This document shows, in pieces, positions 7,001 to 49,112 of a stretch of 64,000 bases of DNA. A program made the translations under genes and the position numbers. The DNA is from Candidatus Hydrogenedens sp. GTDB taxonomy: Bacteria; Hydrogenedentota; Hydrogenedentia; Hydrogenedentales; Hydrogenedentaceae. Below the pieces are notes generated by a model. It ran no database searches. It saw only the letters and a list, made by a program, of their open reading frames with translations, and was not told the DNA's origin. The stretch spans positions 32,001-96,000 of the forward strand of contig JBMFRC010000002.1 in NCBI GenBank assembly GCA_049968235.1. Reading direction: 5' to 3'. How positions within the stretch are numbered: position 1 is the first letter of the stretch; every line of letters starts with the position of its first letter.

Positions 7001-7280
7001 CAGTAGAACTGCTCCTGTTTTTTTTCTGTATTCTTTTTTTCCAAATCTGCATCCAGTATTGTGATGAAGATGGAATTATATTTTCTCCTCGTGGGTAACA
7101 TACTTCAACAAATTCGTTCAACAAATGTGTCTCCAATTTAATGCCTCGCACAGAACCTATTAGCCGTCTCTTCGTCTCCTTATCACAATATTCAATAGTC
7201 CCATCCGCCGAGCAAATAAGGAAACTTACTGTGGAATTTTTCAATAACTGGATAACATCTCTTATTTTAAGGGTTGACAT
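4086..7280 (-). CDS. Hybrid sensor histidine kinase with GAF and PAS domains, HisKA, HATPase_c and a C-terminal receiver
   Basis: H-box AHDYNNILVGILGNAELA. G-boxes DTGSGM and GRGLGLASV. Canonical receiver with ILVVDDEE, VVLDLTMPELDG, ILCSG and QKPY. Length 1064 aa. Confidence 0.8.
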   Translation of the reverse strand: MSTLKIRDVIQLLKNSTVSFLICSADGTIEYCDKETKRRLIGSVRGIKLETHLLNEFVEVCYPRGENIIPSSSQYWMQIWKKRIQKKNRSSSTDNWGSFGIHIKDEKSNLHKILFFIYPITDEKLLDTLLEEDAHILKILEHFSILVIQINSSGEVLYVNEYIKNLTGWLPSEVLGKNWFETFVPDEICEETIQFFQANRLKTNTNDILFEGEIVTKDKKKLLMLWACFPVKQGQGVQSMLILGQELSTPHREKFFMRGIRVIKNQFHWLCGDLVHGIPEEEAFSKILHSAIEITSMEAGAIFKLNPREITLVSAEGLEDKITKLLQHVSKNNLVIETIFSSNDVIEISSMVDSFPVNLRERGFAKIFAIPIRTSENPVGCVVLATTRKDMLDGEIIPLLNSISCEVGWLFLWYEVLELQRRQGRQYELLEQMLPYALLSVDETGEIIGINRGGIRLLGADYEEELLKNKIQRFIPNWYEWVNKLGQNEEIKTSDIQEIEIENLKGERIPTEFIVGHFLLASRSFYMVFLRDVRWRKQAIETIQKAEERYKELFENANDIVYTHDLTGRFTSLNKAGIHITGYSLEEALNMNAFDILAPEYHNEVKEQIRKKLVGAPPTKYEVEIIAKDGHRIPLEVSTRLIYEKEKPVGIQGIARDITDRRRAEEERKRLEMQILYAQKLESLGVLAGGIAHDYNNILVGILGNAELALARLPDDSPIRTYLKRIEESAQRAAELTNQMLAYSGKGVIATRPLNLSRLVEEMKPLLSAIVSKKAIVEYDCPDNLPSIHGDAIQLHQVLMNLITNASESLGESPGKIVIQIKVVDLTREHIKESYYFEPVEPGKYICLEVSDTGSGMSKEVIPRIFDPFFSTKFAGRGLGLASVLGIVRGHKGTINVYSEPGKGTCFKVYFPVSETIKKEEMVQEEEQKKYEKEMFETGKISSAILVVDDEESVLEVANESLTQFGYKTILARNGREALELFNKYKSELTAVVLDLTMPELDGLEVFQEIKKVNKNIPVILCSGFPEQDVHQRFEGIKPSGFIQKPYRPFDLIKLLKSVIGDTV

Positions 7281-7403
7281 TATTTATTCCAATATAGTTA
7301 GTTAAAGCAAGCCTTTCTATTATTTATTAATACTACCAAATTATCATTTCGTTTTATTTAATATTATATTTTAATCTTTGCCAGATAACTTTGTAAATAT
7401 TTT

Positions 7404-8438
7404 TTACTCATTATTGGGGAAAAGAGGGGGAATATAGGAACCGGGTGGAGTTAAACCGAAATGTTTGTAGGCTAATGGCGTTGCAACTCGTCCCTGAGGT
7501 GTCCTTTTCATAAAGCCGATTTGAATAAGATATGGCTCATGAACTTCCTCTATGGTTTGCCGTTCCTCTCCAATTGCAACCGCAAGTGAATTAAGCCCGA
7601 CAGGTCCCCCAGAAAATTTTTCAATAATTGTTTTTATTAACATCCGGTCCATATCATCCAGACCGAGATCATCTATGCGAAGGAGTTTTAATGCGGAGTT
7701 TGCTATTGACAGTGTGATTGTACCATCTCCTTTAACTTGAGCGTAATCTCGGACCCGTCGTAGTAATCGATTTGCAATACGCGCTGTTCCTCGTGAACGC
7801 CGTGCAATCTCTAAGGATGCTTCATCATCAATCGGGACATTTAAGATATGGGCGGAGCGGAGGACAATTGTTTGTAACTCCTGAGGAGAATAGAAATCAA
7901 GTCGGCATGAGTCTCCAAATCGTGCACGTAACGGCGGTGTTAATAAACCAGCTCGTGTTGTAGCCCCTATAAGGGTAAATGGCTTCAATCCTAACTTTAT
8001 AGAACGGGCAGTAGGTCCTTTCCCCAACATAATATCAATTTCAAAATCTTCCATCGCAGAGTATAAAGTTTCTTCCACTGCTCTATTCAAACGATGTATT
8101 TCATCTATAAATAAGATATCGAACTCATTTAATCCTGTTAAAATGGCAGAAAGGTCTGCCTGCCGTTCTAACACAGGACCGGAAGTTTGATGAATAGCGA
8201 CACGCATTTCATTAGCCAAAATTCGGGCGAGTGTTGTTTTTCCCAATCCTGGAGGACCATAAAGCAAAATATGGTCTAATGGTTCTTTTCTTTGTTTTGC
8301 TGCATGGATGGAAATTAACAATTTTTCTTTTACCGGTTCCTGTCCAGGAAAGTCTTGTAATCGCTGGGGGCGAATTTGTTCGTCAAATACAGATTCATCC
8401 TCTATTGGTTCCGGTGCAAATATATGTTCTGAACTCAT
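7404..8438 (-). CDS. ruvB: Holliday junction branch migration DNA helicase RuvB
   Basis: Walker [22 protein letters not shown] and FIDEIHRL. Full-length AAA+ RuvB layout. Overlaps the ruvA stop by 4 bp. Confidence 0.93.
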
Positions 8439-34556: not shown

Positions 34557-35132
34557 TTATATTCCTGGTGGCAATAAATGACCATAAGATAATGTCGTTC
34601 TGGAACCATCAGGATTAAATACTGTAATGAAGTTCACATTGGCACCCTGAACATCATTCGGTCCACCAATCCATTCGATAGTGCAGGAACCGTTTTTCTT
34701 GGTGTCAACGATACCGACACCCGGAATCGGTGTGCTGTCGTCAGGACTGATAGGTCTGTCAGGAACCAATACACCCTGTCCACCTTCTTGACCTCTTGGG
34801 GATCCACCTGGAACTGTGGAATCTGGGTCATAAACACATGGACGGAATGCTAATGCAGACTTCGGTGCAATGGTGAAACTGTTATTGGGTGGGAAAGGAC
34901 CCAAGCAAACACCATCTGCATTGTAATAGGTAATGTAGCATGTCAATGTAGTATCTACATTACTCTTCAGATAAATCAGGTTCATAGCGCCTGATTTCCC
35001 GACCGAAGGATTCACAGGTACACCTACATCTGCAGGAAGGTTGTCTGAGAACCATGGTACTGCCAATGAACTGGCGAATGCCACTCCGGTTCCTACTAAC
35101 ACTAACAATGCGGCGAAACTAAGTTTTCTCAT
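34557..35132 (-). CDS. Hypothetical small secreted protein with Gly/Pro-rich segments; locally GC-elevated gene
   Basis: Signal peptide MRKLSFAALLVLVGTGVAFASSLA. No known motif. By eye the GC content is roughly 50% against roughly 38% in the surrounding genes. It is flanked by a 9-bp palindrome upstream and a strong hairpin downstream. Confidence 0.5.
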   Translation of the reverse strand: MRKLSFAALLVLVGTGVAFASSLAVPWFSDNLPADVGVPVNPSVGKSGAMNLIYLKSNVDTTLTCYITYYNADGVCLGPFPPNNSFTIAPKSALAFRPCVYDPDSTVPGGSPRGQEGGQGVLVPDRPISPDDSTPIPGVGIVDTKKNGSCTIEWIGGPNDVQGANVNFITVFNPDGSRTTLSYGHLLPPGI

Positions 35133-35171
35133 CTTTTCACCTCCTCTCGTGGGGGTTTACCTAAACTTTTT

Positions 35172-35193
35172 GTCATGTTCACTGGAACATGAC
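35172..35193. promoter_or_regulatory. Perfect 9-bp inverted repeat GTCATGTTC-ACTG-GAACATGAC in the divergent intergenic region between the GC-rich secreted-protein gene and the sulfatase gene; candidate operator or 5'-UTR hairpin
   Basis: Read directly. It starts 40 bp upstream of the start codon of the minus-strand gene 34557..35132 and is followed on the + strand by a T8 run at 35203..35210. Confidence 0.4.
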
Positions 35194-35417
35194 CTCGTTT
35201 AGTTTTTTTTATTCAATTTTCACTATATAGTTTATACCACAAACCAGTTTGAGATGTCAAGTCAAATTTTCAAAATTTTAAAAAAATTTTATTCCCAAAA
35301 TATAACTGAAATTATTTTCACTATTCCACTACTTTTCATATATTACAAAAATAGAATACTCAACCATAACATTGAAAATAGTATAATAAAATACTACTAA
35401 ACATAGATTGGGATTCA

Positions 35418-36530
35418 TTGATGAAAAAATTATCAAGGAGAAATTTTCTTCTAAGTAGCACATTACCTCTGTTCCCATACATATATAAATCTACAAACAA
35501 GCAAAGCAATATAAATATTCTTCTTATCATTTCTGATGATTTGAACAATTACACTTCTTACTTAAATTGTGAACCTGAACTATTAACCCCGAACATTCAT
35601 TCACTGCAAAAACATTCTATTACCTTTGAAAATGCATATTGTCAGTATCCTCTTTGCCATCCATCAAGAACAAGTATGCTTACAGGACTTCATCCCTTCT
35701 CTACGGGCGTATACATGTCCGAACAGATTAATTCTGCAGAGTTGCCTATATTACCTCAGTATTTAAAGGAAACACATTACCTTACTGCTGGAATTGGAAA
35801 AGTATTTCATCCCAAATACAATATTGAAAATGTATGGGATTTTAACTTCGAAATATACGACAACCTTTACAATTTTATATACAAAAAAGATGACCCTTTA
35901 TCTGCACAAAATTTCTGTTATGGTCCTGTTGATATTTCCCTTGAAGATACTAATGACTACAAAATAGCCCAACAAGCAGTGGATTTTATTAAATCGAATA
36001 AAAATAATCCCTGGTTTCTTGCTATTGGTTTCCACACTCCTCATACCCCTCTTTTTGCACCCCGGGAGTTTTTCAAGAAAATCCCAAAAAATATTGTAAA
36101 AAAGCCTATCGTTCCCGACGATGATTTAAACGATATTCCAGAAGCAGGTATAAAATTAATAACGAAATACGATAAGGCAAACATACACCAACTTGTATTA
36201 GAAAGGAATATATGGGAAGAACTTATTTATGCCTATTTAGTTCGAATTGCATTCTTAGATGAACTTATTGGAAGCATATTAAAAAATCTTGAAGAAAGTA
36301 AGATATTTAACAATACTTGTATTCTTCTTTGCGGTGATAATGGATGGCATTTAGGGGAAAAGAAACGATGGCAGAAATTTACTCTATGGCAAGAAGCCAA
36401 TAAAGTCCCACTTATTCTGCATCTCCCTGATGGATATAAAGGAGGCTTAACCCTAAAAGAACCTGCTGGGCTTGTTGATATTTTCCCCACAATAACAGAC
36501 CTTCTCTCTTTAAATAAACCTGAAAATTAG
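35418..36530 (+). CDS. Cys-type sulfatase with a Tat signal; catalytic N-terminal domain intact, reading frame broken at the 3' end
   Basis: Twin-arginine motif SRRNFLL. FGly signature CHPSRTSMLTGL. TPNIHSLQKHSITFENAY and CGDNGWHLGE are sulfatase blocks. Confidence 0.8.
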   Translation: MMKKLSRRNFLLSSTLPLFPYIYKSTNKQSNINILLIISDDLNNYTSYLNCEPELLTPNIHSLQKHSITFENAYCQYPLCHPSRTSMLTGLHPFSTGVYMSEQINSAELPILPQYLKETHYLTAGIGKVFHPKYNIENVWDFNFEIYDNLYNFIYKKDDPLSAQNFCYGPVDISLEDTNDYKIAQQAVDFIKSNKNNPWFLAIGFHTPHTPLFAPREFFKKIPKNIVKKPIVPDDDLNDIPEAGIKLITKYDKANIHQLVLERNIWEELIYAYLVRIAFLDELIGSILKNLEESKIFNNTCILLCGDNGWHLGEKKRWQKFTLWQEANKVPLILHLPDGYKGGLTLKEPAGLVDIFPTITDLLSLNKPEN

Positions 36531-36823
36531 AAGGTAAAAGTTTATTGCCTTCGATAAAAAAAGAAGTAATAGAAAATCCATATGTGGTAATTTCTCAGAT
36601 ATAAAATAACAATTTTGCCTTCCGTACGACACGATATTCGTATATTATTTATTATGATGGAAGCGAAGAACTATATGATTACCAATCAGACCCAGGAGAA
36701 TATCATAACATTGCTATGTTAGAAGAGAGTCAAGAAATAAAAAGGAATATCATTTCATTAATTCCCGATAATCAGCGGAAAAAGTTAGCCTCTATTATTA
36801 AAAAAGATATTTTCCAACCATAA
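36530..36823 (+). pseudogene. Displaced C-terminal segment of the upstream sulfatase, in the -1 frame and interrupted by an in-frame TAA at 36602
   Basis: The frame starting at 36530 reads EGKSLLPSIKKEVIENPYVVISQI-TAA-NNNFAFRTTRYSYIIYYDGSEELYDYQSDPGEYHNIA...FQP-stop. These are the conserved sulfatase C-terminal GKSLLP and ELYDLxxDPxExxN blocks. Confidence 0.55.
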
Positions 36824-36824
36824 A

Positions 36825-39482
36825 TCAATTCAAATAACCCAGATTTCTCAAAGTCTCCCTTGTTTCATCAGAGATATCCACTACCTTTCTTCCATCCTCT
36901 GTTCCTTTTGAATAGTACTCAACCCAGAAGAAAAATTCTTTTTTATCATTAGAATTGCCTGACTTCTGAACCTTCATATCTTCACTTGAGAAATAGAAAA
37001 ACTTTTCACCTTTTGACTGTAACAGATGATAACTAGAAGGATAACTTATTGCCCAACAATTTTGGATATGAATTTTCAACTCGCTTTTATCTTCTACCGG
37101 CATAATCTGAATTATTGCAGGTATAGAACTTTTTGGAAGAAATACATCTGCCTTCAAATCCATAGGTGTTGTTCTTTCATTTTTTGTCCGTAATACCCCT
37201 CCTTGAATTTTAGAAAATAGAATAGGCACAGAACATTGTATATTTACGGAACCTGTCCAGAAGGATACAGGATTCGAGAAACATAACCACCAACCTTCTT
37301 TTTTTAGTCCAAATTTTTGCATCAATAATATGGACATATCTTTAAATAATTCCGGTTGTTCTAAACTTACATCATAGTATTCTGCCATATTTTTTTGTAA
37401 ATCAAATAAAGATTTAACACCCTTAGGAATATCCTCCAAAAGTTTATACTGCTTTTTTACTAATGCCCTCATATCTCCTCTTAGACTTGATGAGAAAATA
37501 AGTCTTTCAGTCATTTTTTCTTTTGAAATAATATCTAACAAAGATACACCATCTAATGACACATCCTCTTTCTGATTTAATATTTCTAATATAGTAGGCA
37601 TTAAATCTTCCAGTATTACTCTATCTTTCACATGAAGTCCTGCATATTTGTTATTCGGGAATTTGATAATAGTTACATTCCTCATACTCTCCTCATACAC
37701 ATTATCATGTCCGTATAATCCATGTTCCCCTAAAGATTCCCCATGGTCAGAAACAACCGCTATAAAAGCAGAGTCATACAATCCAATGTCTTTTAAAAAA
37801 GCAAAAAAATCTCCTAAAGCATAATCTACTTTATAAACACAGTCATCATAAAGAGCATGAATATATGCAATCTCTTCCTCTGTTGGGTAAACATCCCCGG
37901 TTGCAAGATACTGAAGCAATAGCCCTAACGATGGGATATCTTCACAACCAATATAACCGTTTTCAGGTCTTACCATTCCTCGAGAAAACATTTTAAAATG
38001 TTCCTCACCCGCATCATAAATCAAATTTCCATACGCTTTTGAATGGACATCATAATTATGCATAAAGACAAATATTCGTTGATTTTGTTGATGGGCTATC
38101 CAATCTTTAGTTTCATTACAAACTTCCAATACAGTCCTCCGATTTCCTTCTCTTCCTTCTTCCGGTACAGAAAACAAATCCATTCCTCGTGCAAATCCAC
38201 GAGATGGAATAAACCACCATAAAAACCCCGCAAAACCTGCTGTTGTATATCCATAATCTCTCATCAGTTCAGGCAAGGTTCCCACATAAGGGTAAACATC
38301 TGTATTACGAGTTAAACCATGTCCTTCCGGAAATCGTCCTGTAAGCATGCTCATATGAGCCACAGGGGTAAATGTCTGGGTAGTATATGCATTTTCAAAA
38401 ACAACAGCATCCTTTGCAAAATTATCCAGATTTGGACTTGTAGGCAAATAATATCCATATGGTAGTAAATGGTCGGGTCTTAATGTATCGCAAGAAATAA
38501 TAAAAAAAGGGGGTCCCTTTTGGTTATTTTCAATTGTTGTATTTACAAGCATTGGATTTCCCCATACGCCGAAATCTCCAATGGAATTATTAATTGGGTT
38601 CATCTCAAAAATAAACTCTACCTCCTTACTTTCATATTTATCAAGACTTAATACACCTCTTTTCCATTTCCTATCTTCCTCTGTTACCTGTGGTCGCATT
38701 TCCGCATGATATATCGCATCTGTACTACCATCTGATACTATATGGATTGAAAAGGCTATTCCATCAGTCTGCCAATCTTGGCTTTCAGAAGTTTTCTTAT
38801 AAGCACCCAAAATAGGATTGTATATTCCAATATAAAAAATTAGTTTCATTCCCTGTTCAATTTTCCGAGTAAATATTACCTTTTCGTTCCATAAAACATC
38901 CATACACACACTACCTATTGTTAACTGTCGTGGATGTTTTTTTTCATAAGGCACAAAGTTTACTTTCTCTAAGTTTACTTCCTTCTCATCTGATATTCCT
39001 TGTATTTCTACCCATACCTTATCTACTGTATCAAATATAGGATTCTCTTTATCCGAAAATCTCAAAGCAAAGGAATATGTATGTATCTTCCCATCGTTAA
39101 TCAATCTCATCCCTTCGGAAGGGAAATAAATGTTATCATCCCATTTTTTACTTGACCAACCCCACCTTATTTCAGAACCCTTCTTACTGGATAAATATAT
39201 ATGAACAAATTGATACATTCCCATATCCATAGCGGATGACAGAGAAAATAACAGAATCTTTACATTTGGGTCCAAAGATTTTTTCCATTCTTTTCCCTCT
39301 AATATTAACTCTGGAAACTTTTCTCTTTTTTCCCAATATTCCTTCGAGAAACGGAATATGTCATCACCCCATGAGACACAACATATTGGTATAACAAACA
39401 TAAAAATAAAAACAATAAGAAGGGGAGTTTTCCTGTGAAAAAAAGAAACTATAGGTTTTTCTTTATATATATACTTATTCAT
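36825..39482 (-). CDS. Large secreted sulfatase-fold (alkaline phosphatase superfamily) protein without the C-x-P-x-R FGly motif, carrying an unknown ~300-aa N-terminal domain
   Basis: N-terminal TM/signal. FFIISCDTLRPDHL metal-binding block. SPNLDNFAKDAVVFENAYTTQTFTPVAHMSMLTG has Thr where the Cys/Ser nucleophile normally sits. The N-domain has the conserved RWGWSS motif. Paralog of the next gene. Confidence 0.7.
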   Translation of the reverse strand: MNKYIYKEKPIVSFFHRKTPLLIVFIFMFVIPICCVSWGDDIFRFSKEYWEKREKFPELILEGKEWKKSLDPNVKILLFSLSSAMDMGMYQFVHIYLSSKKGSEIRWGWSSKKWDDNIYFPSEGMRLINDGKIHTYSFALRFSDKENPIFDTVDKVWVEIQGISDEKEVNLEKVNFVPYEKKHPRQLTIGSVCMDVLWNEKVIFTRKIEQGMKLIFYIGIYNPILGAYKKTSESQDWQTDGIAFSIHIVSDGSTDAIYHAEMRPQVTEEDRKWKRGVLSLDKYESKEVEFIFEMNPINNSIGDFGVWGNPMLVNTTIENNQKGPPFFIISCDTLRPDHLLPYGYYLPTSPNLDNFAKDAVVFENAYTTQTFTPVAHMSMLTGRFPEGHGLTRNTDVYPYVGTLPELMRDYGYTTAGFAGFLWWFIPSRGFARGMDLFSVPEEGREGNRRTVLEVCNETKDWIAHQQNQRIFVFMHNYDVHSKAYGNLIYDAGEEHFKMFSRGMVRPENGYIGCEDIPSLGLLLQYLATGDVYPTEEEIAYIHALYDDCVYKVDYALGDFFAFLKDIGLYDSAFIAVVSDHGESLGEHGLYGHDNVYEESMRNVTIIKFPNNKYAGLHVKDRVILEDLMPTILEILNQKEDVSLDGVSLLDIISKEKMTERLIFSSSLRGDMRALVKKQYKLLEDIPKGVKSLFDLQKNMAEYYDVSLEQPELFKDMSILLMQKFGLKKEGWWLCFSNPVSFWTGSVNIQCSVPILFSKIQGGVLRTKNERTTPMDLKADVFLPKSSIPAIIQIMPVEDKSELKIHIQNCWAISYPSSYHLLQSKGEKFFYFSSEDMKVQKSGNSNDKKEFFFWVEYYSKGTEDGRKVVDISDETRETLRNLGYLN

Positions 39483-39488
39483 ATCTGG

Positions 39489-42083
39489 CTATAAATATCC
39501 TGCATTCTTTATATTAGATATAGCATCTTCGGGTAGTTCAATTTCCTTCCGTTCATTTTCATTCGTTAATGGTTTTTGACGAATGAATATATATGTATTA
39601 CCATCGTTGAGAATATCAGGTATATTTTCCCAATACAAATTTTCTCCAGGTAATATAAATTCATACTCACTTACTAGTTCACTAATTCTATCTCGAGAAA
39701 CTACTTTAAATTTCTCCGGACTTCTAAAACCTATTCTTAATTCCTGTTTCATATCTTTCGGATATACATATAGGGAATAAGTATCTGCAATTTGTGGATA
39801 ACTTATGGTTCCATATAAACAATCCATTTTCTCCGCTTTCTTATACCAGAACATTATATTATCGGGTATCACCGAAATCAGATTGGGTCCGGGACATATA
39901 AATACCTCATCAGGAATATTTGTTTTTTTCCCTTTCATCTCGATAACCCAACCTTCTCCACTAAAAAATCTATAGGAACTCATTTCCGCTAAAAATTGTT
40001 TTACAAGGATATTTTCCTTTTCAAAAAGATTGACACATTCTGCCGGGTCCTGTAATAAATCAAAAAAACTCACCTTTGATTCTCTAAAAGAACAAATAAC
40101 CTTATGTTTATCCGATATGAGGGCTTCTTCATTCTGATATTGATTCTGAACGAAAATTTTCCTTGGAGTATTATATTCTCCTTCTATAATCTTAGACAGG
40201 GATACGCCATCCAGATTTTCATAGCTTATATTTAAATTATCCAGTATCGTAGGGACAATATCTTCTAAACAAACCAGATTTTCTATTCGTCTCCCGGCAT
40301 ATATAGCATTGGGGAACTTTATCATCATAGGAACTCGTGCAGTATGTTCATATACATCTACATGCTCATAACGACCATGTTCCCCTAATGCTTCTCCGTA
40401 GTCAGCAATCACTACAATAACAGATTTATCATACAAACCCTGTTCTTCCAAAAAATTAAACAGGTCACCTAACGCGTAATCTACTTTTGCAACGCAATCA
40501 TCATATAACGCATTGATATATAAATTTTCGTAAAAACCTAATTTCCCTAATGTTGCCTGTATGTGGTTAAAAAAACTTCTTGGATTAGGCATACATTCCG
40601 CTGTTAATAATTCAGGAACTTCGAGTATATCGCTGAAGAAAAAAAATCGAGCGTCTTCAGAACTATATATTGTCGCAGGGGGAAACATTCGGGTATGCAC
40701 ATCATAATTGTGTAAAAACACGAAAAGATTGTTATATTTCATCTTTTTTATTTCGTTCTTTAATATTTCTTGTGTAGAAAAAACATCGCGTAGATATTCT
40801 GGTGGATAAAAGAAACTATCCATCCCTCGCATATACCCTCTGGAAGGCAAAAACCATGTCGTTGCTCCTACCAATCCTATGGAATAGTACCCTAATTCTT
40901 TTAAATATTCTCCCAATAACTTAACATTATCATAAGCAGGAAGTTCTGCATTAACTCCATGGTTCTTCGGGAATAGCCCCGTTAAAAGACTCATATGAGC
41001 CACTGGAGTAAAGGTGCGTGTTGTATATGCTCGTTCAAATAATACTGCCTCCTTTGCAAATCTATCCAGATTTGGACTTGTTGGCAATGAATAACCATAT
41101 GGTAACAAATGGTCTGCTCGCATTGTATCGCAAGAAATAATAAATACGGGCGGATATTGCTTTGTTGTATCATCGTCATTTCGAATAATGATAGGATTAC
41201 CCCATAACCCATATTCTTCAGGAATATTTATCGCTGTTTTTTTGGTAAAAACAATTTGTACTTCTTTCCCTGCAAATTTTGATAGGTCTAATTCTGTAAA
41301 TCGCCATCCCTGGTCATCCTCTTTTTCCATCGGATTCATCTGATGTTCATATATATGTTCTTTTCTCTCATCACACGATACATCAATGGAAAAAGTATAT
41401 TTTTGTTTACTCCATTCTTGAACATACTTCTTCTGAGATAATGCTCCTACCTTTAGGTTATATATACCTGTATACAGTAGTAATCTATCCCCTGTTTGTA
41501 TTTTTGTAGTAAATGTCCAGATATCCTCAGGAATACAATTCATACATAATCCATTAAGCATAAATTGTCCCAATTCTGAAGGCAAATATCTAACTAATTC
41601 AACATTTTTCAATTGCAACCCATTATTAATCTTTTCTAAATTTGCAACTTCAATAATAAATTTATTGGCACTATCAACTATAGGGTTGATTTTATCAGGA
41701 TATTTAATTTCAAAAGTATATTGATGTAATTTGCCATCTGCAATCAGAGGAAGCTTATCTTCAGAAAAAGAATTCGGTCCTTCTTTATTTGCAGAACTCC
41801 ATCCCCATCGGATAAAAGCATTTTTGTCTGAAACCATCTCTATTTTTATTAGTTTGTATAAACTTAAATCTAAATGTATTTCATATTCAAAAAGAATCTT
41901 TCCTACCTCGCTTTGCTTCATCTGCCATTGTTCTCCGGAAATAGTTAAGTCAGTTCTCGGAAACTTATCATTCCAATATTTATCCGTTAGTCGAATGACC
42001 AATCCATAAGATTCCGACCACAAAAATACACTTATAAAGAGAACTTTTATTCCTATCTTGATATTTACATATCTGTTAAACAT
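39489..42083 (-). CDS. Paralogous large secreted sulfatase-fold protein lacking the FGly motif, with the same unknown N-terminal domain
   Basis: VFIISCDTMRADHL, SPNLDRFAKEAVLFERAYTTRTFTPVAHMSLLTG, RWGWSS in the N-domain. Same architecture and collinear similarity to the 36825..39482 product. Confidence 0.7.
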   Translation of the reverse strand: MFNRYVNIKIGIKVLFISVFLWSESYGLVIRLTDKYWNDKFPRTDLTISGEQWQMKQSEVGKILFEYEIHLDLSLYKLIKIEMVSDKNAFIRWGWSSANKEGPNSFSEDKLPLIADGKLHQYTFEIKYPDKINPIVDSANKFIIEVANLEKINNGLQLKNVELVRYLPSELGQFMLNGLCMNCIPEDIWTFTTKIQTGDRLLLYTGIYNLKVGALSQKKYVQEWSKQKYTFSIDVSCDERKEHIYEHQMNPMEKEDDQGWRFTELDLSKFAGKEVQIVFTKKTAINIPEEYGLWGNPIIIRNDDDTTKQYPPVFIISCDTMRADHLLPYGYSLPTSPNLDRFAKEAVLFERAYTTRTFTPVAHMSLLTGLFPKNHGVNAELPAYDNVKLLGEYLKELGYYSIGLVGATTWFLPSRGYMRGMDSFFYPPEYLRDVFSTQEILKNEIKKMKYNNLFVFLHNYDVHTRMFPPATIYSSEDARFFFFSDILEVPELLTAECMPNPRSFFNHIQATLGKLGFYENLYINALYDDCVAKVDYALGDLFNFLEEQGLYDKSVIVVIADYGEALGEHGRYEHVDVYEHTARVPMMIKFPNAIYAGRRIENLVCLEDIVPTILDNLNISYENLDGVSLSKIIEGEYNTPRKIFVQNQYQNEEALISDKHKVICSFRESKVSFFDLLQDPAECVNLFEKENILVKQFLAEMSSYRFFSGEGWVIEMKGKKTNIPDEVFICPGPNLISVIPDNIMFWYKKAEKMDCLYGTISYPQIADTYSLYVYPKDMKQELRIGFRSPEKFKVVSRDRISELVSEYEFILPGENLYWENIPDILNDGNTYIFIRQKPLTNENERKEIELPEDAISNIKNAGYL

Positions 42084-42211
42084 TGTATAACTTCTATTTT
42101 TACTTCATGTATATTTCGTTATTTACATATATTATGATATAAAATTATATCCCAACATAGAAAAAACCGTTTTATACCCTGAAAGATATTCGTATAATAA
42201 TACTTCTTCTT

Positions 42212-43339
42212 TTGGTTGACGATGAAAAAGTAGATTATCCAATGTCCCCAATAAATAAAAAAACTATCATAAAAACAATTATTATAAACATCTCCGTTTT
42301 ATTGATTATATGTCTTTTTATTTGTTTCTTATTTTTACCTTTTGAAATATTCCTTCGCTTTAAGTATAAAGGAAATGAAAGAGTCATGTTAACCTCTCCC
42401 CCCATTATCGTCTGCTCTGAACAGGGGAGGGAAATCGCTAAGGGAGTTAAAGGAGAAGGCACAATAACTGTTAGAGACAATCCTCATATTTTTTATTTTG
42501 AAACCGACACAAAAGGAAGAAGAGTTACTCCTCAACCGAGCATTGATAATAAAGAATTTAATTGTTTATTTTTTGGCTGTTCTTTTACCTTCGGAACAGG
42601 TGTGAATAATGACCAGACCTTGCCTTATTATTTTGGGCAACTACATCCCGAAATAGAAGTATACAATTATGGAATTCCTGGAGGTTCTCCACAAGAAATA
42701 TATCTTCAATCTACTCATTCTGAAATTTTTGCAGATATCCCCACCAAACCCACAATTGTGATATATACTTTCATCTCTGACCATTTACGAAGATTGAAAG
42801 GCACAATAAATTTAATATTCAGAGCCCCTAAATGGGTTGGCTGTTTACCAGAATTGGAGATTGTTAATACCAAAGTGATTAATAAAGGCAAATTCGAGAA
42901 AACACATCCTTATTTGTTTTCTTTTGCCAATATAATAAGCAACTCTCTTGTAATAAAACAGATGATAAATTACACTCAGATGGATTATCCATCACCTTTT
43001 ACAAACGAAAATTATGACTTTTTATGTAACTTGCTAAATGAAACGAGAAATCAATTATCTATTCAGTTTCCTAATTTATATTTTGTGATATTTATCTATC
43101 CCGAACATTGTTTTACCCCTAACACCTGCCCTAATTTAGATTATTTCATAAATATCCTTAATATGAGAAAAGAGTTAATGTTAATTTCCTGCGAAGAAAA
43201 GAAAATGATAGAAAATTATTCCCAACTCAAATCCTCCGGAAAACATATAATTTTAGATGGACATCCCAGTCCGGAATGTTACAAATTATTTGCGGAATGG
43301 ATAAGTAATGGACTGAAAAATAAGGGAATTATTCCATAA
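42212..43339 (+). CDS. Hypothetical membrane-anchored protein; possibly an SGNH/GDSL-like hydrolase fold
   Basis: N-terminal TM helix. The FFGCSFTFGTGVNND block resembles SGNH block I. No firm family assignment. Confidence 0.4.
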   Translation: MVDDEKVDYPMSPINKKTIIKTIIINISVLLIICLFICFLFLPFEIFLRFKYKGNERVMLTSPPIIVCSEQGREIAKGVKGEGTITVRDNPHIFYFETDTKGRRVTPQPSIDNKEFNCLFFGCSFTFGTGVNNDQTLPYYFGQLHPEIEVYNYGIPGGSPQEIYLQSTHSEIFADIPTKPTIVIYTFISDHLRRLKGTINLIFRAPKWVGCLPELEIVNTKVINKGKFEKTHPYLFSFANIISNSLVIKQMINYTQMDYPSPFTNENYDFLCNLLNETRNQLSIQFPNLYFVIFIYPEHCFTPNTCPNLDYFINILNMRKELMLISCEEKKMIENYSQLKSSGKHIILDGHPSPECYKLFAEWISNGLKNKGIIP

Positions 43340-45760
43340 CTATTTTGATAAAACCTGCTGAATAATTTCCTTCAGATTTTCAAAACGATAGGGTTTTTGA
43401 ATATACCCTGAGAATAAATCTATTTTTACTTTATTGATAATTTGTTCGTGAGGGTAGCCACTGGTCAAAATAACCGGGATTTCTTCTCTCATTTTCTTCA
43501 TTTCCATACATGCTTCAACACCATCTGCATGAGGCATTGTTAAATCTAAAAAGACACACTTAATATCCTCTTTATGCTTTTTAAATAATTGAATTGCTTC
43601 TTTCCCATCAATAGCAGATAATACTTCAAAGCCTAAGTATTCCAACATCCGCTGAGTAATGGCTCGAACAGTATCTTCATCTTCAGCCAACAGGAGTTTC
43701 CCTTCATACCGAAACTCTTTTGCTTCTTCTGTAAAGATGGTCTCTTTCTCTTCCATCCATTCAATAGCTGGTAAAAATATCTTAAAAGCGGTTCCTCTCC
43801 CTTTCTCTGAATAAACCTTTATCCCGCCATGATGACTTTTTATTGTACCTAAAACAGAAACCAATCCAAGTCCACGACCTGTGAATTTCGTTGAATAAAA
43901 AGGTTCAAAAATACGTTTCCGAGTTTCTTCATCCATTCCACATCCGGTATCTACAACTTCCACAACCACATACAGACCTTCTTTCAATTCTCCGGGCAAA
44001 AAGAGGGTATCTAAATACTTACTATCACAAAAGGAAGCCGATGTCCGAACAATTATCATACCGCTTCTATTTCCAATCGCTTCATTGGAATTAATAACAA
44101 GATTCATGATAACCTGTGATAGTTGTGTAGCATCCCCTTCTACCATAGGTATCTGTTCCGCTAAATCCAATTTCAATACTACCTTTTTAGAAATAGAAGA
44201 TTTGATAATTTGTAGCATCTCTTCTATCATCTTATTTAAATTCACACGTTTCGTTAATAGTTTTCTTCTGCCCGCATAAGAAAGCATCTGTTGAGCAAGT
44301 TCAGACCCTTTTTTCCCTGCAATAATAATGCTATTCAAATATTCTCTTGCAGTAGAAATTTCTGGAAGTTCGTGAAGAGCAAGTTCTGCGCTACCTATCA
44401 TTGCCATTAATATATTATTAAAATCATGAGCCACTCCCCCTGCCAATGTCTCTAAACTCTGAATTTTCTGCACCTGGTGCATTCGTTCTTGCATTTGTTT
44501 TCGCTGTTGTTCTAATTTTTTCTGTTCACGAATATCAATAATTCCCCCAATAATCCCATCTTCCGGGCATTGTGGGTTTCTCAACGCTGCATTAATACGA
44601 ATGTCGATAAATTCCCCATTCTTATCTTTCCATCGAGTATCAACCCAATTCATATTATTATCCGTTAATCCTTCATATAACTCTTTCTCCACACGATTAA
44701 ATTCTTCGTCCGTCTCATAATATTTCCTTGTTGAACTACCTATCATCTCTTCCTTTGAATATCCTAGAATTTGACACATCCGGTCATTACACCACTCTAT
44801 TACCCGATTCCTGACAAAAACTACACCAAAAGGTGTTGTTTGCATCATACTATTTAATAATTGTTCATCCCTTTCTATTATCTCCTGGGCTCTTTTTATT
44901 TCCGTTATATCACCATAAGTCCCCAATATACCAATAATATTATTATCCCTATCTCGTAAAGGTACCTTACTTACATATAACCATCTCACTTCTCCAGAAG
45001 CACGTGTATGTTTTTCCTCAAAATTTAATAGGGGTTCCCCACTTTCCATAATTCTACGGTCTATTTCACGGAAGCCATCTGATTCTTCCTTTGTCCATGG
45101 CAGGTCATAATCCGTTTTACCGATTACCTCCTCGGGTGAGGAACAATTTGCATCCTTAGCAAATTGTAGATTACAACCTAAAAACACTCCATTTTTATCC
45201 TTCCAGAAAACTGCTTGAGGAATATTTTCAATAATTGTTTTTGTCAGCGAGACCTGAGTATCTCTATCTTTTTGAATATTGACAAGTCGGTCTATATTAA
45301 TGGCAATCTCAATTCTTGCCATCTTTCCATTTTCCCACGGAATTGCAAAATCAACACATTGGAAAAAAGAACCCGTTCGTGTATTCTGGAATAACCAAAC
45401 ATAGGGAGCATTCGGTTCTCCTTTCTCATTAAGTAACCGGTCGTTCGTACAAAAACTACACGGTGCTATTTGCCCCTTTTGTAATATTTCGTAACATTTT
45501 TTCCCTACGATTCCTTCTCCAAACGTTTTTTCTAAATACTCATTTACAGCCAATATTTCATAAGTATCCATATCCGATACATATACTGCTGTATCTATAG
45601 CACTCATACTTTGAAATAATGGCTTTAAATCTGACCGGGTATAAAAATTTTTTTCTTGACCCATTAAGATATTTTTTATCTCTTCCGCCTGTGATTTCCA
45701 ATGAAGTATTTCTTTTATCAGTTCTTCTTTTGTTTTTTTAAAAAACTCTTCTATTTCCAT
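43340..45760 (-). CDS. Hybrid sensor histidine kinase with multiple PAS domains and a C-terminal receiver
   Basis: H-box AHDFNNILMAMIGSAELA. DTGCGM and GRGLGLVSV. Receiver with LLLAEDED, VFLDLTMPHADG, ILTSG and QKPY. Confidence 0.8.
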   Translation of the reverse strand: MEIEEFFKKTKEELIKEILHWKSQAEEIKNILMGQEKNFYTRSDLKPLFQSMSAIDTAVYVSDMDTYEILAVNEYLEKTFGEGIVGKKCYEILQKGQIAPCSFCTNDRLLNEKGEPNAPYVWLFQNTRTGSFFQCVDFAIPWENGKMARIEIAINIDRLVNIQKDRDTQVSLTKTIIENIPQAVFWKDKNGVFLGCNLQFAKDANCSSPEEVIGKTDYDLPWTKEESDGFREIDRRIMESGEPLLNFEEKHTRASGEVRWLYVSKVPLRDRDNNIIGILGTYGDITEIKRAQEIIERDEQLLNSMMQTTPFGVVFVRNRVIEWCNDRMCQILGYSKEEMIGSSTRKYYETDEEFNRVEKELYEGLTDNNMNWVDTRWKDKNGEFIDIRINAALRNPQCPEDGIIGGIIDIREQKKLEQQRKQMQERMHQVQKIQSLETLAGGVAHDFNNILMAMIGSAELALHELPEISTAREYLNSIIIAGKKGSELAQQMLSYAGRRKLLTKRVNLNKMIEEMLQIIKSSISKKVVLKLDLAEQIPMVEGDATQLSQVIMNLVINSNEAIGNRSGMIIVRTSASFCDSKYLDTLFLPGELKEGLYVVVEVVDTGCGMDEETRKRIFEPFYSTKFTGRGLGLVSVLGTIKSHHGGIKVYSEKGRGTAFKIFLPAIEWMEEKETIFTEEAKEFRYEGKLLLAEDEDTVRAITQRMLEYLGFEVLSAIDGKEAIQLFKKHKEDIKCVFLDLTMPHADGVEACMEMKKMREEIPVILTSGYPHEQIINKVKIDLFSGYIQKPYRFENLKEIIQQVLSK

Positions 45761-45852
45761 TCACATCCCTTTACTTTTTGTTTACCAAATCTCTACTAAT
45801 TATAGTTATTATATATGTAATCTATCGAAATAACAACCCGACATAAATACAA

Positions 45853-47985
45853 ATGCTTGTAAATATTTTATTACTATTAAACACACTTATTCATGGTACT
45901 AATATCTGGATAGAACCGTCGTGGGTATCTACCAACCTTCCCCAACCATCTCCCAATTCTCATTATGAAGCACAAATTTTTTCTGCAAAAGGCGAAGCAG
46001 AATCTATTCATGTCCATATCGTTGCCGATAAAGACGACCTGAATAATTTATCCTGTGTTTTTGATAAAATGCCTGAAAATTTCCCCAATCCATTGTTATA
46101 CCAGGTATTACCTATACAGGGAGTTCCTCTTCCACAGGGGGGTATGGACCGAAGTCTTATATTTTTAGATATTCTAAAACCTTTCCAACCATTTAATCTC
46201 CTAAAAGGGCAAAAAGCAGTCTTCTGGATAACATTTCAAACCCCACGAACCATAAAAACAGGAATATATAAGACAGAATTGCAAATTAATGTGGAAGAAA
46301 AGAAACTGAAACGTATTCCTATTACCATTGAGGTTTTTGATTTTGAAATTCCGCGAACACCTTCTCTACCTGCTATTAGTTTTTTGGATTGGCAAATATT
46401 ACTACGAACAAATCCTCAATCTAAGTTATCCGATGATTTCTGGAAAAATCTTTTTAATTTTGTATATGACAAACGGCTTCAACTTTCATTAGGATCCTAT
46501 CTACAAAATCTCAACACGGATACTTTCACTATTCCTGAAAATTTGTGGAGAAACTATGTTAATTATATAAAAGAATACCATTCGCAGAATATCATAGACA
46601 TAACACCTCTACTATTACCTCCGGGTCCTCTGGAAACCGTTCGCACACTTTCAAAAAATGAAGAAAATATGATAAATGACATAAGGGGTATAAATAATGT
46701 CGCTATGGGAGCCCTTTTTTTTATGCCAAAAGATACCGGAGAAAATGACGCTTTACGACGATATTTAAGTTCCCTTTCCGAACAACTTCCTCTTGTCACA
46801 AGGATTTTTTGTGGTATTCCCTTACCCCAGTTTAATTTTTTTACAGACATCTGGGCTTTGCCTTTTTCTTCATTTGCCCCGGGATTAATGGAACGATTCG
46901 CAAAAGGTCTATCTATTGCAGATGAAATTACGTTTCCTATTAAGTCTATTTCTTCTTCCACTACCGGATTCATTCCCGGTTCTTATCCTCCTATTTTAAG
47001 TTCTCCATGGCAAGCCATAGATGCATGTATCTATACGGGATGGCTATCCTACCCGGCAGAAAAAGAGGGCAAAAAGGAATGGATAGAGATACAATTGAAA
47101 GAAAAAGTAATTGGTAATAAAATAGCCATTATTTGGGGTCCTGCCCAAATTCCCCAATCTATCGATATTCTAACTTCAAGAGATGGTATTCACTTTCTAA
47201 CATCCTCCGTAAATTGGAAACATATATCAGGGACTCTTTTTGACCCTGCTATATCATACGGAACTTTTAAATACAATCCCGACTTTTCTGCTATCCGTTT
47301 TGAATTTTCCCGAATTAAGAAAGGTGAATTTGTATATATTAAAGAGATACGGCTAAACCCAGATGAACAGAGTAAAGAACCTCGCACGGCTCCTGTAATT
47401 ACCCCGTGGTTATGGATTAATCCAGAGCAATATCCCTCACTTCGCTATGATTCCGCATCCATAGAACCCCGTATTATTCCATGGATATGCTGGAATTATG
47501 GCTTTAGAGGTATTATTCTCACTCCTCTGATTTCATGGGGCAATATTGTTACAAGACCCCAAAACATGGAAACTTTCCTATTTCAACCTCAAGACACATT
47601 ACAAATGTCTACTTTGCTTTATCCTGCAAAAGATACCTATCTACACTCTATTCGTTTAGAACGGCTCCGTGATGGATTGGAAGATTTTGAATATCTATTA
47701 CTTCTCGCTCAAAAAGCACAATCCCAAAAAATAATTAATAAAGAATGCTACAATTATCTAACTATGCAACTTGAAAAATTTGTTCCATGGAATGTTGTTC
47801 AGGAGGATTTTGCAAAAGAATTGATGATGAAAAGACTTTCTATTGGATATGAATTAAGCAACAGAGAATCCCCTTATAAACACGAAAAAAAAGAATTCTC
47901 ACCTAAAAAAGACAACGGAGAAATGGTTCGCATTTCCCCAAAAGTACAAAAAAACTTTTCTATCCGTCAAAAAACCACAGAATAA
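45853..47985 (+). CDS. Hypothetical secreted protein with an F5/8 type C (discoidin)-like domain; possibly DUF4091 glycoside-hydrolase-like
   Basis: Signal peptide. The segment WQAIDACIYTGWLSYPAEKEGKKEWIEIQLKEKVIGNKIAIIWG...SRDGIHF fits a discoidin beta-sandwich. N-terminal YEAQIFSAKGEAESIHVHIV resembles DUF4091 starts. Function unknown. Confidence 0.45.
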   Translation: MLVNILLLLNTLIHGTNIWIEPSWVSTNLPQPSPNSHYEAQIFSAKGEAESIHVHIVADKDDLNNLSCVFDKMPENFPNPLLYQVLPIQGVPLPQGGMDRSLIFLDILKPFQPFNLLKGQKAVFWITFQTPRTIKTGIYKTELQINVEEKKLKRIPITIEVFDFEIPRTPSLPAISFLDWQILLRTNPQSKLSDDFWKNLFNFVYDKRLQLSLGSYLQNLNTDTFTIPENLWRNYVNYIKEYHSQNIIDITPLLLPPGPLETVRTLSKNEENMINDIRGINNVAMGALFFMPKDTGENDALRRYLSSLSEQLPLVTRIFCGIPLPQFNFFTDIWALPFSSFAPGLMERFAKGLSIADEITFPIKSISSSTTGFIPGSYPPILSSPWQAIDACIYTGWLSYPAEKEGKKEWIEIQLKEKVIGNKIAIIWGPAQIPQSIDILTSRDGIHFLTSSVNWKHISGTLFDPAISYGTFKYNPDFSAIRFEFSRIKKGEFVYIKEIRLNPDEQSKEPRTAPVITPWLWINPEQYPSLRYDSASIEPRIIPWICWNYGFRGIILTPLISWGNIVTRPQNMETFLFQPQDTLQMSTLLYPAKDTYLHSIRLERLRDGLEDFEYLLLLAQKAQSQKIINKECYNYLTMQLEKFVPWNVVQEDFAKELMMKRLSIGYELSNRESPYKHEKKEFSPKKDNGEMVRISPKVQKNFSIRQKTTE

Positions 47986-47999
47986 CGAACACGGTAAAA

Positions 48000-49112
48000 T
48001 TATTCCAAATTCATTTCCAACTGTAAATTTGTCCCTGTCTTTACCCAGGCATTTGTTACGATGACTTTTGTATTTCCCTCTCCTCTTGTCCGAACCAGCA
48101 ACGAAGAACGAGGTTCCAATCGGTATGTTCCTCCTGCCACAGGACCTATTAGTTTCAATGACCATGGGATATCCGATACATTTTCTATTTGCATTTGTCC
48201 TTCTTTCTTTTTGGGATTGGTTATCCGTATTTTTCCGAAATGGACACAGGAAAGAAATAACTTTGAAACCCATTCTTCCCTGCCATTAATCAAATCCGCT
48301 ATCCATACAACAGTCCGTTTATTGTCTAAGGCTTCACGAATTCCCTGCTCTGTTTTTTCCTTAGCAAACACTAAAGTCATGGGTCTTTGAAATTTATCCA
48401 ATTGAAATTCTCCCATAATTAACCCATGCAAGTCACTGTTACCCATCATTGTAAGGTTATTTTCCAAAGCCCAATCTATTACATGCGGATACCAATCCGA
48501 ACCATTGGATATTTCCACTCCGTGCAGGTACCCTTTTTCTAACAATTTCTTCTGAAATTTAAATTGATTCCTGGTTGCAGAATTCCAATCCGGATGATTC
48601 CATTGAATAAAAGCGCCCTGTTTAACTGCATTCTCAATTGCTGTAAATGGGTCTTCATTATCAACAAGGTTTACATCTTTCAGAAATAAAGCATTATAAT
48701 GTCCATAAGGTTCGTCGCGTGTGATTTCCCCACCTTTGATTAAAATAATTCCATACCATTCTCCCGCACTTTGTGCTACTTCATACGATGAATTATCATC
48801 TCCCGTTAAAAATGGTCTGGACCTACCGTTTTCTATATGGTCTGTAATAGCAATCGCATCTAAACCTGTTGCCCACGCTTCTATAACCCGTAAATCGGGC
48901 CAAACACGACCATCAGAAAAAACGGTATGCATATGGAAATCACATTTTAATGTTATAAATTCCTCTACATTAGGAACCATCACCTCGTGTCGAATTATAG
49001 GTCGTTCCAACTGTGTAATAGTGATAGGAGAGATATTGGCCGCAAAAATCATTAACGACATCGTTACAAGAAAAATTACCAAAATAGCTATTTGCTTTAC
49101 CTGTTTAATCAT
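48000..49112 (-). CDS. PHP domain-containing metal-dependent phosphoesterase with an N-terminal TM/signal
   Basis: CDFHMHTVFSDGRVWPDLRVIEAWATGLDAIAITDHIE is the PHP His-cluster motif. Confidence 0.65.
   Translation of the reverse strand: MIKQVKQIAILVIFLVTMSLMIFAANISPITITQLERPIIRHEVMVPNVEEFITLKCDFHMHTVFSDGRVWPDLRVIEAWATGLDAIAITDHIENGRSRPFLTGDDNSSYEVAQSAGEWYGIILIKGGEITRDEPYGHYNALFLKDVNLVDNEDPFTAIENAVKQGAFIQWNHPDWNSATRNQFKFQKKLLEKGYLHGVEISNGSDWYPHVIDWALENNLTMMGNSDLHGLIMGEFQLDKFQRPMTLVFAKEKTEQGIREALDNKRTVVWIADLINGREEWVSKLFLSCVHFGKIRITNPKKKEGQMQIENVSDIPWSLKLIGPVAGGTYRLEPRSSLLVRTRGEGNTKVIVTNAWVKTGTNLQLEMNLE

Follow-up and report, generated by a model that had tools for sequence, protein, structure and literature searches.

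Tandem sulfatase-like proteins of Candidatus Hydrogenedens with threonine at the nucleophile position: predicted phosphoryl-transfer enzymes on an S1 sulfatase scaffold

We analyzed a window of 64,000 nucleotides from Candidatus Hydrogenedens sp. (assembly GCA_049968235.1, contig JBMFRC010000002.1, positions 32,001 to 96,000 of the forward strand), in which two adjacent genes encode large sulfatase-like proteins, here called A and B (Table 1; residue numbers refer to A unless B is named). An earlier reading of the same DNA, made from its letters and open reading frames (ORFs) without database searches (the sequence-only reading), had described these as tandem paralogs of ~870 residues, and we found both ORFs at the coordinates and on the strand it gave. 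BLASTP aligned A and B as full-length paralogs, with 34% identity over 862 aligned residues (E 4e-164). In a neighbour-joining tree the two fell into sister clades, each with orthologs from several genomes. A and B are old paralogs, not the product of a recent duplication. No third family copy was found within the window. Only 6 bases separate the stop of B from the start of A, and the two genes are therefore almost certainly co-transcribed. An NCBI protein entered as "MAG: sulfatase [Candidatus Hydrogenedens sp.]" (MAG, metagenome-assembled genome) matches B at 100% identity.

Table 1. Coordinates of the A/B gene pair, its domains and the surrounding genes, in positions of the window.
Feature	Coordinates	Strand	Description
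Paralog A	36825..39482	-	885 aa; multi-domain Thr-type sulfatase-like protein (ORF, PF00884 at 111 bits, AlphaFold model)
A, residues 19-35	39378..39428	-	Sole hydrophobic segment; helix in the model, single hydropathy peak
A, residues 42-178 (Nd1)	38949..39359	-	First beta-sandwich; holds RWGWSS and DGK.H.Y.F (models, local hidden Markov model match)
A, residues 186-314 (Nd2)	38541..38927	-	Second beta-sandwich; invariant W-G-N-P at its end
A, residues 326-725	37308..38507	-	Catalytic alkaline phosphatase/S1 sulfatase-like domain, including the SGSH_C subdomain
A, catalytic key residues	38367-38369 (T372 codon)		D332, T372, H376, H475, D478, H480, D579, H580, E582, H592
A, residues 730-857	36912..37295	-	C-terminal beta-sandwich (model secondary structure); no meaningful Pfam match
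A, residues 872-885	36828..36869	-	Terminal helix (872-880) and L-x-x-L-G-Y-L tail; G882 and Y883 invariant
Paralog B	39489..42083	-	864 aa; domain order as in A
B, domains			Nd1 ~26-166, Nd2 ~171-304, catalytic ~308-695; key residues D319, T359, H363
Cys-type S1 sulfatase	35418..36822	+	C-H-P-S-R motif, twin-arginine translocation (Tat) signal; disrupted; likely start ATG 35421, listed TTG probably wrong
Candidate SGNH/GDSL-type protein	42212..43339	+	Membrane-anchored; GCSFTFG block, C-terminal D-G-H; divergent from the B-A pair
Hybrid PAS histidine kinase	43340..45760	-	Receiver domain (Pfam); cytoplasmic, no transmembrane segment; same strand as B-A
710-aa protein	45853..47985	+	Sub-threshold GH123 catalytic and N-terminal and F5/8 type C matches; conserved beside the kinase in related genomes
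370-aa protein	48000..49112	-	N-terminal hydrophobic segment; weak PHP phosphoesterase and weak Ig-like DUF5001 matches
191-aa secreted protein	34557..35132	-	No family match; conserved at every related locus examined, flanked by the sulfatase and RNase HII

Both proteins matched the Pfam family Sulfatase (PF00884; 111 bits for A and 110 bits for B, residues ~313-635) and SGSH_C. Together with an AlphaFold model of A based on the alignment of 48 family sequences (predicted local distance difference test 87.2, predicted template modelling score 0.88), these matches support the sulfatase fold of the alkaline phosphatase superfamily that had been proposed. The motifs quoted earlier, RWGWSS, DGK.H.Y.F, ISCDT(L/M)R(P/A)DHL and FTPVAHMS, are all present in A and B. 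The NPP family PF01663 also matched, at 49.9 bits against a cut-off of 23, over the nucleophile segment only (~70 residues, best stretch 328-398). The first ~310 and the last ~170 residues of both proteins had no meaningful Pfam match, even at E<=10. All NCBIfam matches were sub-threshold, the arylsulfatase model reaching 123-148 bits against a cut-off of 481.

A and B each consist of five parts: an N-terminal hydrophobic segment, two beta-sandwiches, an S1 sulfatase-like catalytic domain, a further beta-sandwich and an L-x-x-L-G-Y tail. The sequence-only reading had described the region before the catalytic domain as one ~300-residue domain of no recognizable family. This region indeed has no Pfam match, but in the model of A it forms two separate beta-sandwiches (Nd1 and Nd2), and the C-terminal sandwich and invariant G-Y tail had been missed altogether. 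Within Nd1, W109 and Y136 are near-invariant in the family alignment. A hydropathy scan detected one N-terminal hydrophobic segment in each protein. In A it could function as a signal anchor or direct export; in B it resembles a cleavable signal. Because this segment is the only one, the catalytic domain and the bulk of both proteins are predicted to be extracytoplasmic.

At the position of the formylglycine motif C-x-P-x-R, A and B carry T-P-V-A-H. In phmmer alignments with solved sulfatases, T372 coincided with the formylglycine residue and H376 with the motif's Arg. In the model of A, the helix 372-381 begins at T372; the start of a helix is where the nucleophile is located in the alkaline phosphatase superfamily. 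D332, T372, H376, H388, H475, D478, H480, D579, E582 and H592 were invariant among the 48 sequences, and H580 was near-invariant. Across 105 homologs these features co-varied in an all-or-none fashion: Thr-type sequences combined D-T, T-x-x-x-H, H-N-Y-D-x-H, D-H and a distal His, and Cys-type sequences combined D-D/Q, C-x-P-x-R, D-H/N and a distal Lys. Cys331 (in S-C-D-T) was considered as a cryptic nucleophile and rejected: it is near-invariant in the subfamily, is replaced by Ile, Leu or Val in the wider clade and lacks the P-x-R context. Nor was a cryptic C/S-x-P-x-R found elsewhere, and no specific annotated family claims A or B. Of the two conserved blocks that had been described as metal-binding, ISCDT does contain the invariant D332, whereas SPNLD...FAK is conserved yet not metal-binding.

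Alignment of the family profile with E. coli EptA by hhalign (probability 97.6%, E 4e-12) placed D332 on the metal-binding Glu and T372 on the second Thr of G-T-A-T-A, the catalytic Thr. H475/H480 fell on the H-x4-H pair, and S-D579-H580-G-E582-S-L-G-E...H592 on S-D-H-G-E-S-L-G-E...H with identical spacing. In EptA and MCR-1, the aligned positions are the nucleophile, the zinc ligands and the phosphate-binding histidines. Thus, phmmer, the 48-sequence alignment and hhalign all support the proposal that Thr occupies the nucleophile position, in a residue pattern akin to that of phosphoethanolamine/phosphoglycerol transferases and NPP.

A and B share with S1 sulfatases and phosphonate monoester hydrolases (BT1918 of S1_46, 7oz8; PsS1_NC, 6pt6; Agrobacterium PMH, 4uph) the two-subdomain fold of an alpha/beta core and SGSH_C, and with S1 sulfatases the first metal Asp, the S-D-H-G block and the C-terminal LFDL..DP.E..N motif. 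Unlike S1 sulfatases, they lack C/S-x-P-x-R, with Thr replacing the formylglycine precursor and His replacing Arg; His592 stands in for the distal sulfate-binding Lys and Thr for the second metal Asp (D-T versus D-D). They also add the tandem N-terminal beta-sandwiches, the C-terminal beta-sandwich and the L-G-Y tail. On the evidence of these residues, A and B are excluded from the formylglycine sulfatases. They might nevertheless be true sulfatases, or sulfo- or phosphonate-ester hydrolases, that use Thr in place of formylglycine: their nearest sequences and folds are those of S1 sulfatases and phosphonate monoester hydrolases, the genes adjoin a Cys-type sulfatase, and catalytic promiscuity is known among members of the alkaline phosphatase superfamily. 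However, we know of no Thr-nucleophile sulfatase, and the replacement of the sulfate-binding set in concert (the Arg, the distal Lys and the second metal Asp) argues strongly against this possibility, which we regard as very improbable. The authors of SulfAtlas explicitly leave Thr-bearing PF00884 sequences out of the sulfatases, as not being established ones (PMC5066984); that PF00884 contains Thr-bearing non-sulfatases is therefore a known point.

The similarity to transferases raises a different alternative. EptA, EptC and MCR-1 have in common with A and B the Thr nucleophile, the acidic and D-H metal ligands, H-x4-H, the S-D-H-G-E-S-L-G-E block and the distal His, and LtaS/LtaP and VP1736 (3lxq) are likewise Thr-type PF00884 members. 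A and B could accordingly be biosynthetic phosphotransferases in the manner of EptA, BcsG, OpgB, LtaS and GacH, taking phosphoethanolamine or phosphoglycerol as the phospho-alcohol from a membrane phospholipid and passing it via Thr372 to the cell's own glycan, in conjunction with the adjacent AlgX/SGNH-like protein of O-acyl-transferase type. The catalytic residues correspond to those of phosphoethanolamine transferases at each position aligned by hhalign, and a single helix would tether the enzyme at the membrane surface. To our knowledge, however, the characterised lipid-donor transferases of the superfamily all carry a polytopic membrane domain of 3-5 helices that presents the lipid. This domain has five helices in EptA, EptC and MCR-1, and LtaS enzymes, which use phosphatidylglycerol, also have five transmembrane helices; A and B have one hydrophobic segment each, that of B being of the cleavable type. 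Moreover, their scaffold, including SGSH_C and LFDL..DP.E..N, is that of soluble hydrolases and is joined to modules resembling carbohydrate-binding modules (CBMs). The NCBIfam models for EptA, MCR and LtaS reached only 15-35 bits on A and B against cut-offs of 500-1250 (LtaS, 19 bits versus 970). Neither the polytopic membrane domain nor the family-level sequence match that would mark an LtaS, OpgB or GacH enzyme was found. On balance we consider lipid-dependent transfer unlikely, though it is the most serious competitor of hydrolysis.

NPPs are soluble or tethered phosphodiester hydrolases, and the segment T-x-x-x-H-x-S-x-x-T-G-x-[FY]-P-x-x-H-G of A and B is akin to T-F-P-N-H-Y-S-I-V-T-G-L-Y-P-E-S-H-G of NPP. 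In contrast to NPP, the D-x-x-x-H motif of the second metal is not present as such in the A/B family, which has H-N-Y-D-x-H instead. When the family was set against the NPP bimetallo site, the candidate second-metal residues D478, H480 and H592 were invariant in the 48-sequence alignment, and the PF01663 match was partial.

The N-terminal sandwiches of A and B have a beta-jelly-roll fold and resemble CBMs. They share this fold with CBM51, CBM6, CBM35 and CBM36 (galactose-binding-domain-like jelly rolls), but at an identity of only 6-13% and without a Pfam match or membership in any of these sequence families. The domain had also been called novel. It does lack a Pfam match and a name, but it is common: its profile, searched exhaustively against 1.84 billion representatives, matched 3811 proteins at E<=1e-3, of which 874 reached E<=1e-10 and 77 reached E<=1e-30. 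When the N-domain alone served as query in a word-indexed search, no homologs were returned even though full-length orthologs exist, which we attribute to a limit of the tool. About half of the best 150 profile matches (~75) combined Nd1, Nd2 and the Thr-type catalytic domain in full. Most of the others carried two tandem copies of Nd2 at the C-terminus of proteins of ~650-1300 residues (P0165-P0241), and tandem Nd2 pairs occurred in shorter proteins and fragments as well. When six tandem-Nd2 proteins were analyzed with Pfam, one contained PMT_2 and TPR, one YfhO, two TPR only and one a Thr-type catalytic domain, and one had no match. In 2 of the best 150 matches, tandem Nd2 preceded another catalytic domain of the Thr-type kind. 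Nd2 is a widespread unnamed module that connects Thr-type enzymes to GT-C glycosyltransferase/TPR proteins. The partners of the N-domain are extracytoplasmic enzymes acting on envelope glycans. That Nd2 is common to GT-C glycosyltransferases (PMT_2, YfhO) that build such glycans is a point in favor of the phosphotransferase alternative.

We scanned for the wider clade using one genome per species. Relatives of the catalytic domain at 25-32% identity were present in Acidobacteriota, Aminicenantes, Planctomycetota, Myxococcota, Chloroflexota, Thermodesulfobacteriota, Nitrospinota, two cultured Bacillus species and others. Of 135 ORFs from other phyla, 128 have Thr in the nucleophile position together with the residues that co-vary with it. 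The motif [LIMV]-x-x-[LM]-G-Y was present in 97 of 121 Thr-type ORFs (L010-L089) from many phyla, usually at the extreme C-terminus or closing the catalytic module ahead of TPR repeats; docking, oligomerisation and sorting are possible roles. What is specific to the proteins of the window is the combination of two N-terminal sandwiches with an extra C-terminal one, which, where the organism is named, almost always belongs to Hydrogenedentota. The Thr-type catalytic domain forms a large, widespread clade, members of which are already labelled "sulfatase" or "sulfatase-like hydrolase/transferase" in databases. A literature search on Thr-type sulfatase-like enzymes and Hydrogenedentes sulfatases found no characterisation of this clade, the SulfAtlas remark being its sole relevant result; the Thr-type clade with its S1 scaffold, phosphoethanolamine-transferase-like site and L-G-Y tail, its Hydrogenedentota architecture and the Nd2 module are undescribed in the literature searched.

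The genomic surroundings of clade members bear on the choice between hydrolysis and transfer. Within the wider clade, tandem arrays of 3-5 Thr-type copies are frequent, a pattern seen more typically when catabolic enzymes expand. In Acidobacteriota/Thermoanaerobaculia genomes (L013, L054, L056, L081), 3-5 Thr-type genes lie adjacent to one another, some fused to TPR repeats. On the biosynthetic side, glycosyltransferases are the commonest catalytic families near the wider clade, beside non-catalytic TPR repeats; GT2, NTP-transferase and alginate-export genes occur near some members, and SGNH/AlgX-like neighbors recur in two distant subclades. In one distant subclade, a 577-aa membrane-anchored SGNH protein with Lipase_GDSL_2 and ALGX matches and a CBM4_9-like insert is encoded directly upstream on the same strand. 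Note that the two loci with this neighbor are 73% identical orthologs and therefore count as one observation.

Around A and B, the conserved gene order in related Hydrogenedens genomes is GH123-like, hybrid kinase (or third paralog), SGNH-like, B, A, Cys-sulfatase, 191-aa secreted protein and RNase HII. The membrane protein with the GCSFTFG block noted in the sequence-only reading was recovered here with one transmembrane segment, and we provisionally place it with the SGNH/GDSL type. It had no Pfam match, but GCSFTFG aligned with GDSFTFG of the GDSL protein 4rsh (E 0.004), and the NCBIfam LA_2486 GDSL family matched with E 2.4e-7 (30 bits, cut-off 300). Its likely start is ATG ~42242, the listed TTG 42212 being probably wrong, since its orthologs, of 365-366 residues, begin there, just as those of the Cys-type sulfatase begin at ATG 35421; the SGNH-like orthologs hold the same position in L001-L006. 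The hybrid sensor kinase was also as described, with PAS, histidine kinase and receiver domains confirmed by Pfam. It adjoins family members in L001-L003, L007 and L091, distant relatives included. In a deeper relative, a single family member directly follows kinase and receiver genes, with neither an SGNH-like gene nor a sulfatase, and in another the order is kinase, family member, intact Cys-sulfatase. Regulation of the module by the kinase, as had been proposed, is only suggested by this conserved adjacency. A third paralog (P0022 type, C-T-P-V-A-H; ~5754..8381, minus strand) in L004-L006 occupies the kinase position in some Hydrogenedens genomes. The 370-aa PHP-like protein keeps synteny with two others, an Amidohydro_3 protein and one of ~1270 aa without a Pfam match. 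A promoter and terminator scan of 35100..46000 gave 44 promoter-like sites, compared to 51.8 in shuffled sequences, and no convincing terminators.

The Cys-type sulfatase on the opposite strand is real, with the motifs SRRNFL and LCHPSR, but lies tail-to-tail with A and not upstream of the pair, as had been stated. Its first 368 residues share 87% identity with an ortholog that is intact at 466 aa; beyond them the reading frame shifts near 36525, and a TAA stands in frame at 36602-36604. It is thus a pseudogene in this assembly. Intact orthologs of 445-477 residues are found beside family members in L001, L005, L006 and L091. The notion of a sulfatase cluster is therefore weakened for this genome, where the gene is broken, and holds for relatives in other genomes.

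B, too, carries an unusual change. Tyr562 (TAC, 40398-40400, minus strand) takes the place of the metal-ligand His of S-D-H-G-E, a change found in B alone among >100 relatives; all orthologs carry His, and a single C-to-T change suffices. It may represent either a true inactivating change or an assembly error. With the two independent lesions in the sulfatase, this could mean that B is dead or a mere binding protein and that the locus is being lost together with its broken sulfatase. However, apart from this change B is intact along its 864 codons and retains the other invariant residues, A is entirely intact, errors in the MAG consensus could explain all three changes, and Tyr is still able to ligate some metals. 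We therefore judge local decay to be improbable. Decay of B and the sulfatase is, in any case, compatible with the other readings.

Considering these results together, we propose that A and B, either exported or tethered to the membrane, catalyze metal-dependent phosphoryl transfer with a Thr nucleophile and are most likely glycan-targeted phosphodiesterases, not sulfatases, a reading to which we assign a probability of roughly 0.55. On the S1 sulfatase scaffold, Thr372 (Thr359 in B) would serve as the nucleophile, its hydroxyl activated by a divalent metal held by D332, T372, D579 and H580. Attack on a phosphate ester would generate a covalent phospho-Thr intermediate, with a His-rich pocket (H376, H475/H480 and H592, together with E582) binding the phosphoryl oxygens and the leaving group, and water would then release the phosphate group. 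The two N-terminal CBM-like sandwiches, and perhaps the C-terminal one, may anchor the enzyme to a glycan polymer. The most likely reaction would be hydrolysis of phosphodiester-linked substituents or backbones of extracellular or envelope glycopolymers. Candidate materials are teichoic-acid-type polymers, phosphoglycans and polymers decorated with phosphocholine or phosphoethanolamine; A and B may plausibly act on an anionic glycan or an anionic component of the envelope. The architecture, fold, residue conservation and synteny are observed, and the metal, the phospho-Thr chemistry, the class of substrate and hydrolysis in place of transfer are deduced. We favor hydrolysis over transfer because A and B combine the lack of a polytopic membrane domain with a soluble-hydrolase scaffold, CBM-like modules and conserved neighbors of hydrolase type. 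In related genomes these neighbors are an intact Tat Cys-sulfatase and GH123-like, PHP phosphoesterase-like and SGNH-like proteins, with an SGNH/AlgX-like protein again in a distant subclade. In those related genomes, the SGNH esterase-like protein may work together with the A/B enzymes, as may the adjacent Cys-sulfatase and GH123-like protein.

Several observations weigh against this proposal. The family aligned far better with the ortholog of the neighboring Cys-sulfatase (hhalign E 2.7e-27 over 344 columns) than with EptA, and shares with it the S1 C-terminal LFDL..DP.E..N motif. The best PDB sequence matches of A and B were all formylglycine enzymes, and this search returned no solved structure for any member of the Thr-type clade. 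Since no member has been assayed or solved, the chemistry of the clade is deduced from residues alone, and the metal geometry and pocket shape of A and B are putative. MAM and reelin domains, which do not bind glycans, scored almost as high as CBMs. The local module may be decaying, given that one metal-ligand His is missing from B and that the adjoining sulfatase is disrupted. Finally, the 139 neighbors around 80 clade loci were uninformative, with no family exceeding 5 occurrences and a slight lean to glycosyltransferases (5 GT4-type and 4 GT2, the overlap between the two being unchecked). This lean fits a biosynthetic as well as a catabolic role and cannot decide between them.

In a broader perspective, we tentatively suggest that A and B represent an uncharacterised large branch of the alkaline phosphatase superfamily in which the formylglycine/Ca2+ chemistry of S1 enzymes was swapped wholesale for Thr/His-rich phosphoryl transfer, with the sulfatase scaffold kept and then joined to a glycan-targeting module that has no name and also occurs in GT-C glycosyltransferases; we hold this more doubtful than the phosphodiesterase assignment itself. 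If true, A and B would be founding members of a new class of glycopolymer phosphodiesterases (or of single-helix phosphotransferases), and part of the "sulfatase" inventory of Hydrogenedentota, Planctomycetota and Acidobacteriota would consist of phosphate-ester enzymes. A, B and hundreds of relatives are named "sulfatase" because they match PF00884, although their residues predict that they are unable to make formylglycine. Sulfatase counts used as a measure of sulfated-polysaccharide degradation in Hydrogenedentota and other phyla (e.g. PMC9723792) are thus probably inflated by the Thr-type clade. The combination of an S1 scaffold with a phosphoethanolamine-transferase-like site would provide a natural test case for nucleophile and metal swaps in the alkaline phosphatase superfamily, and the link through Nd2 to GT-C glycosyltransferase/TPR proteins points to a shared envelope or extracellular polymer.

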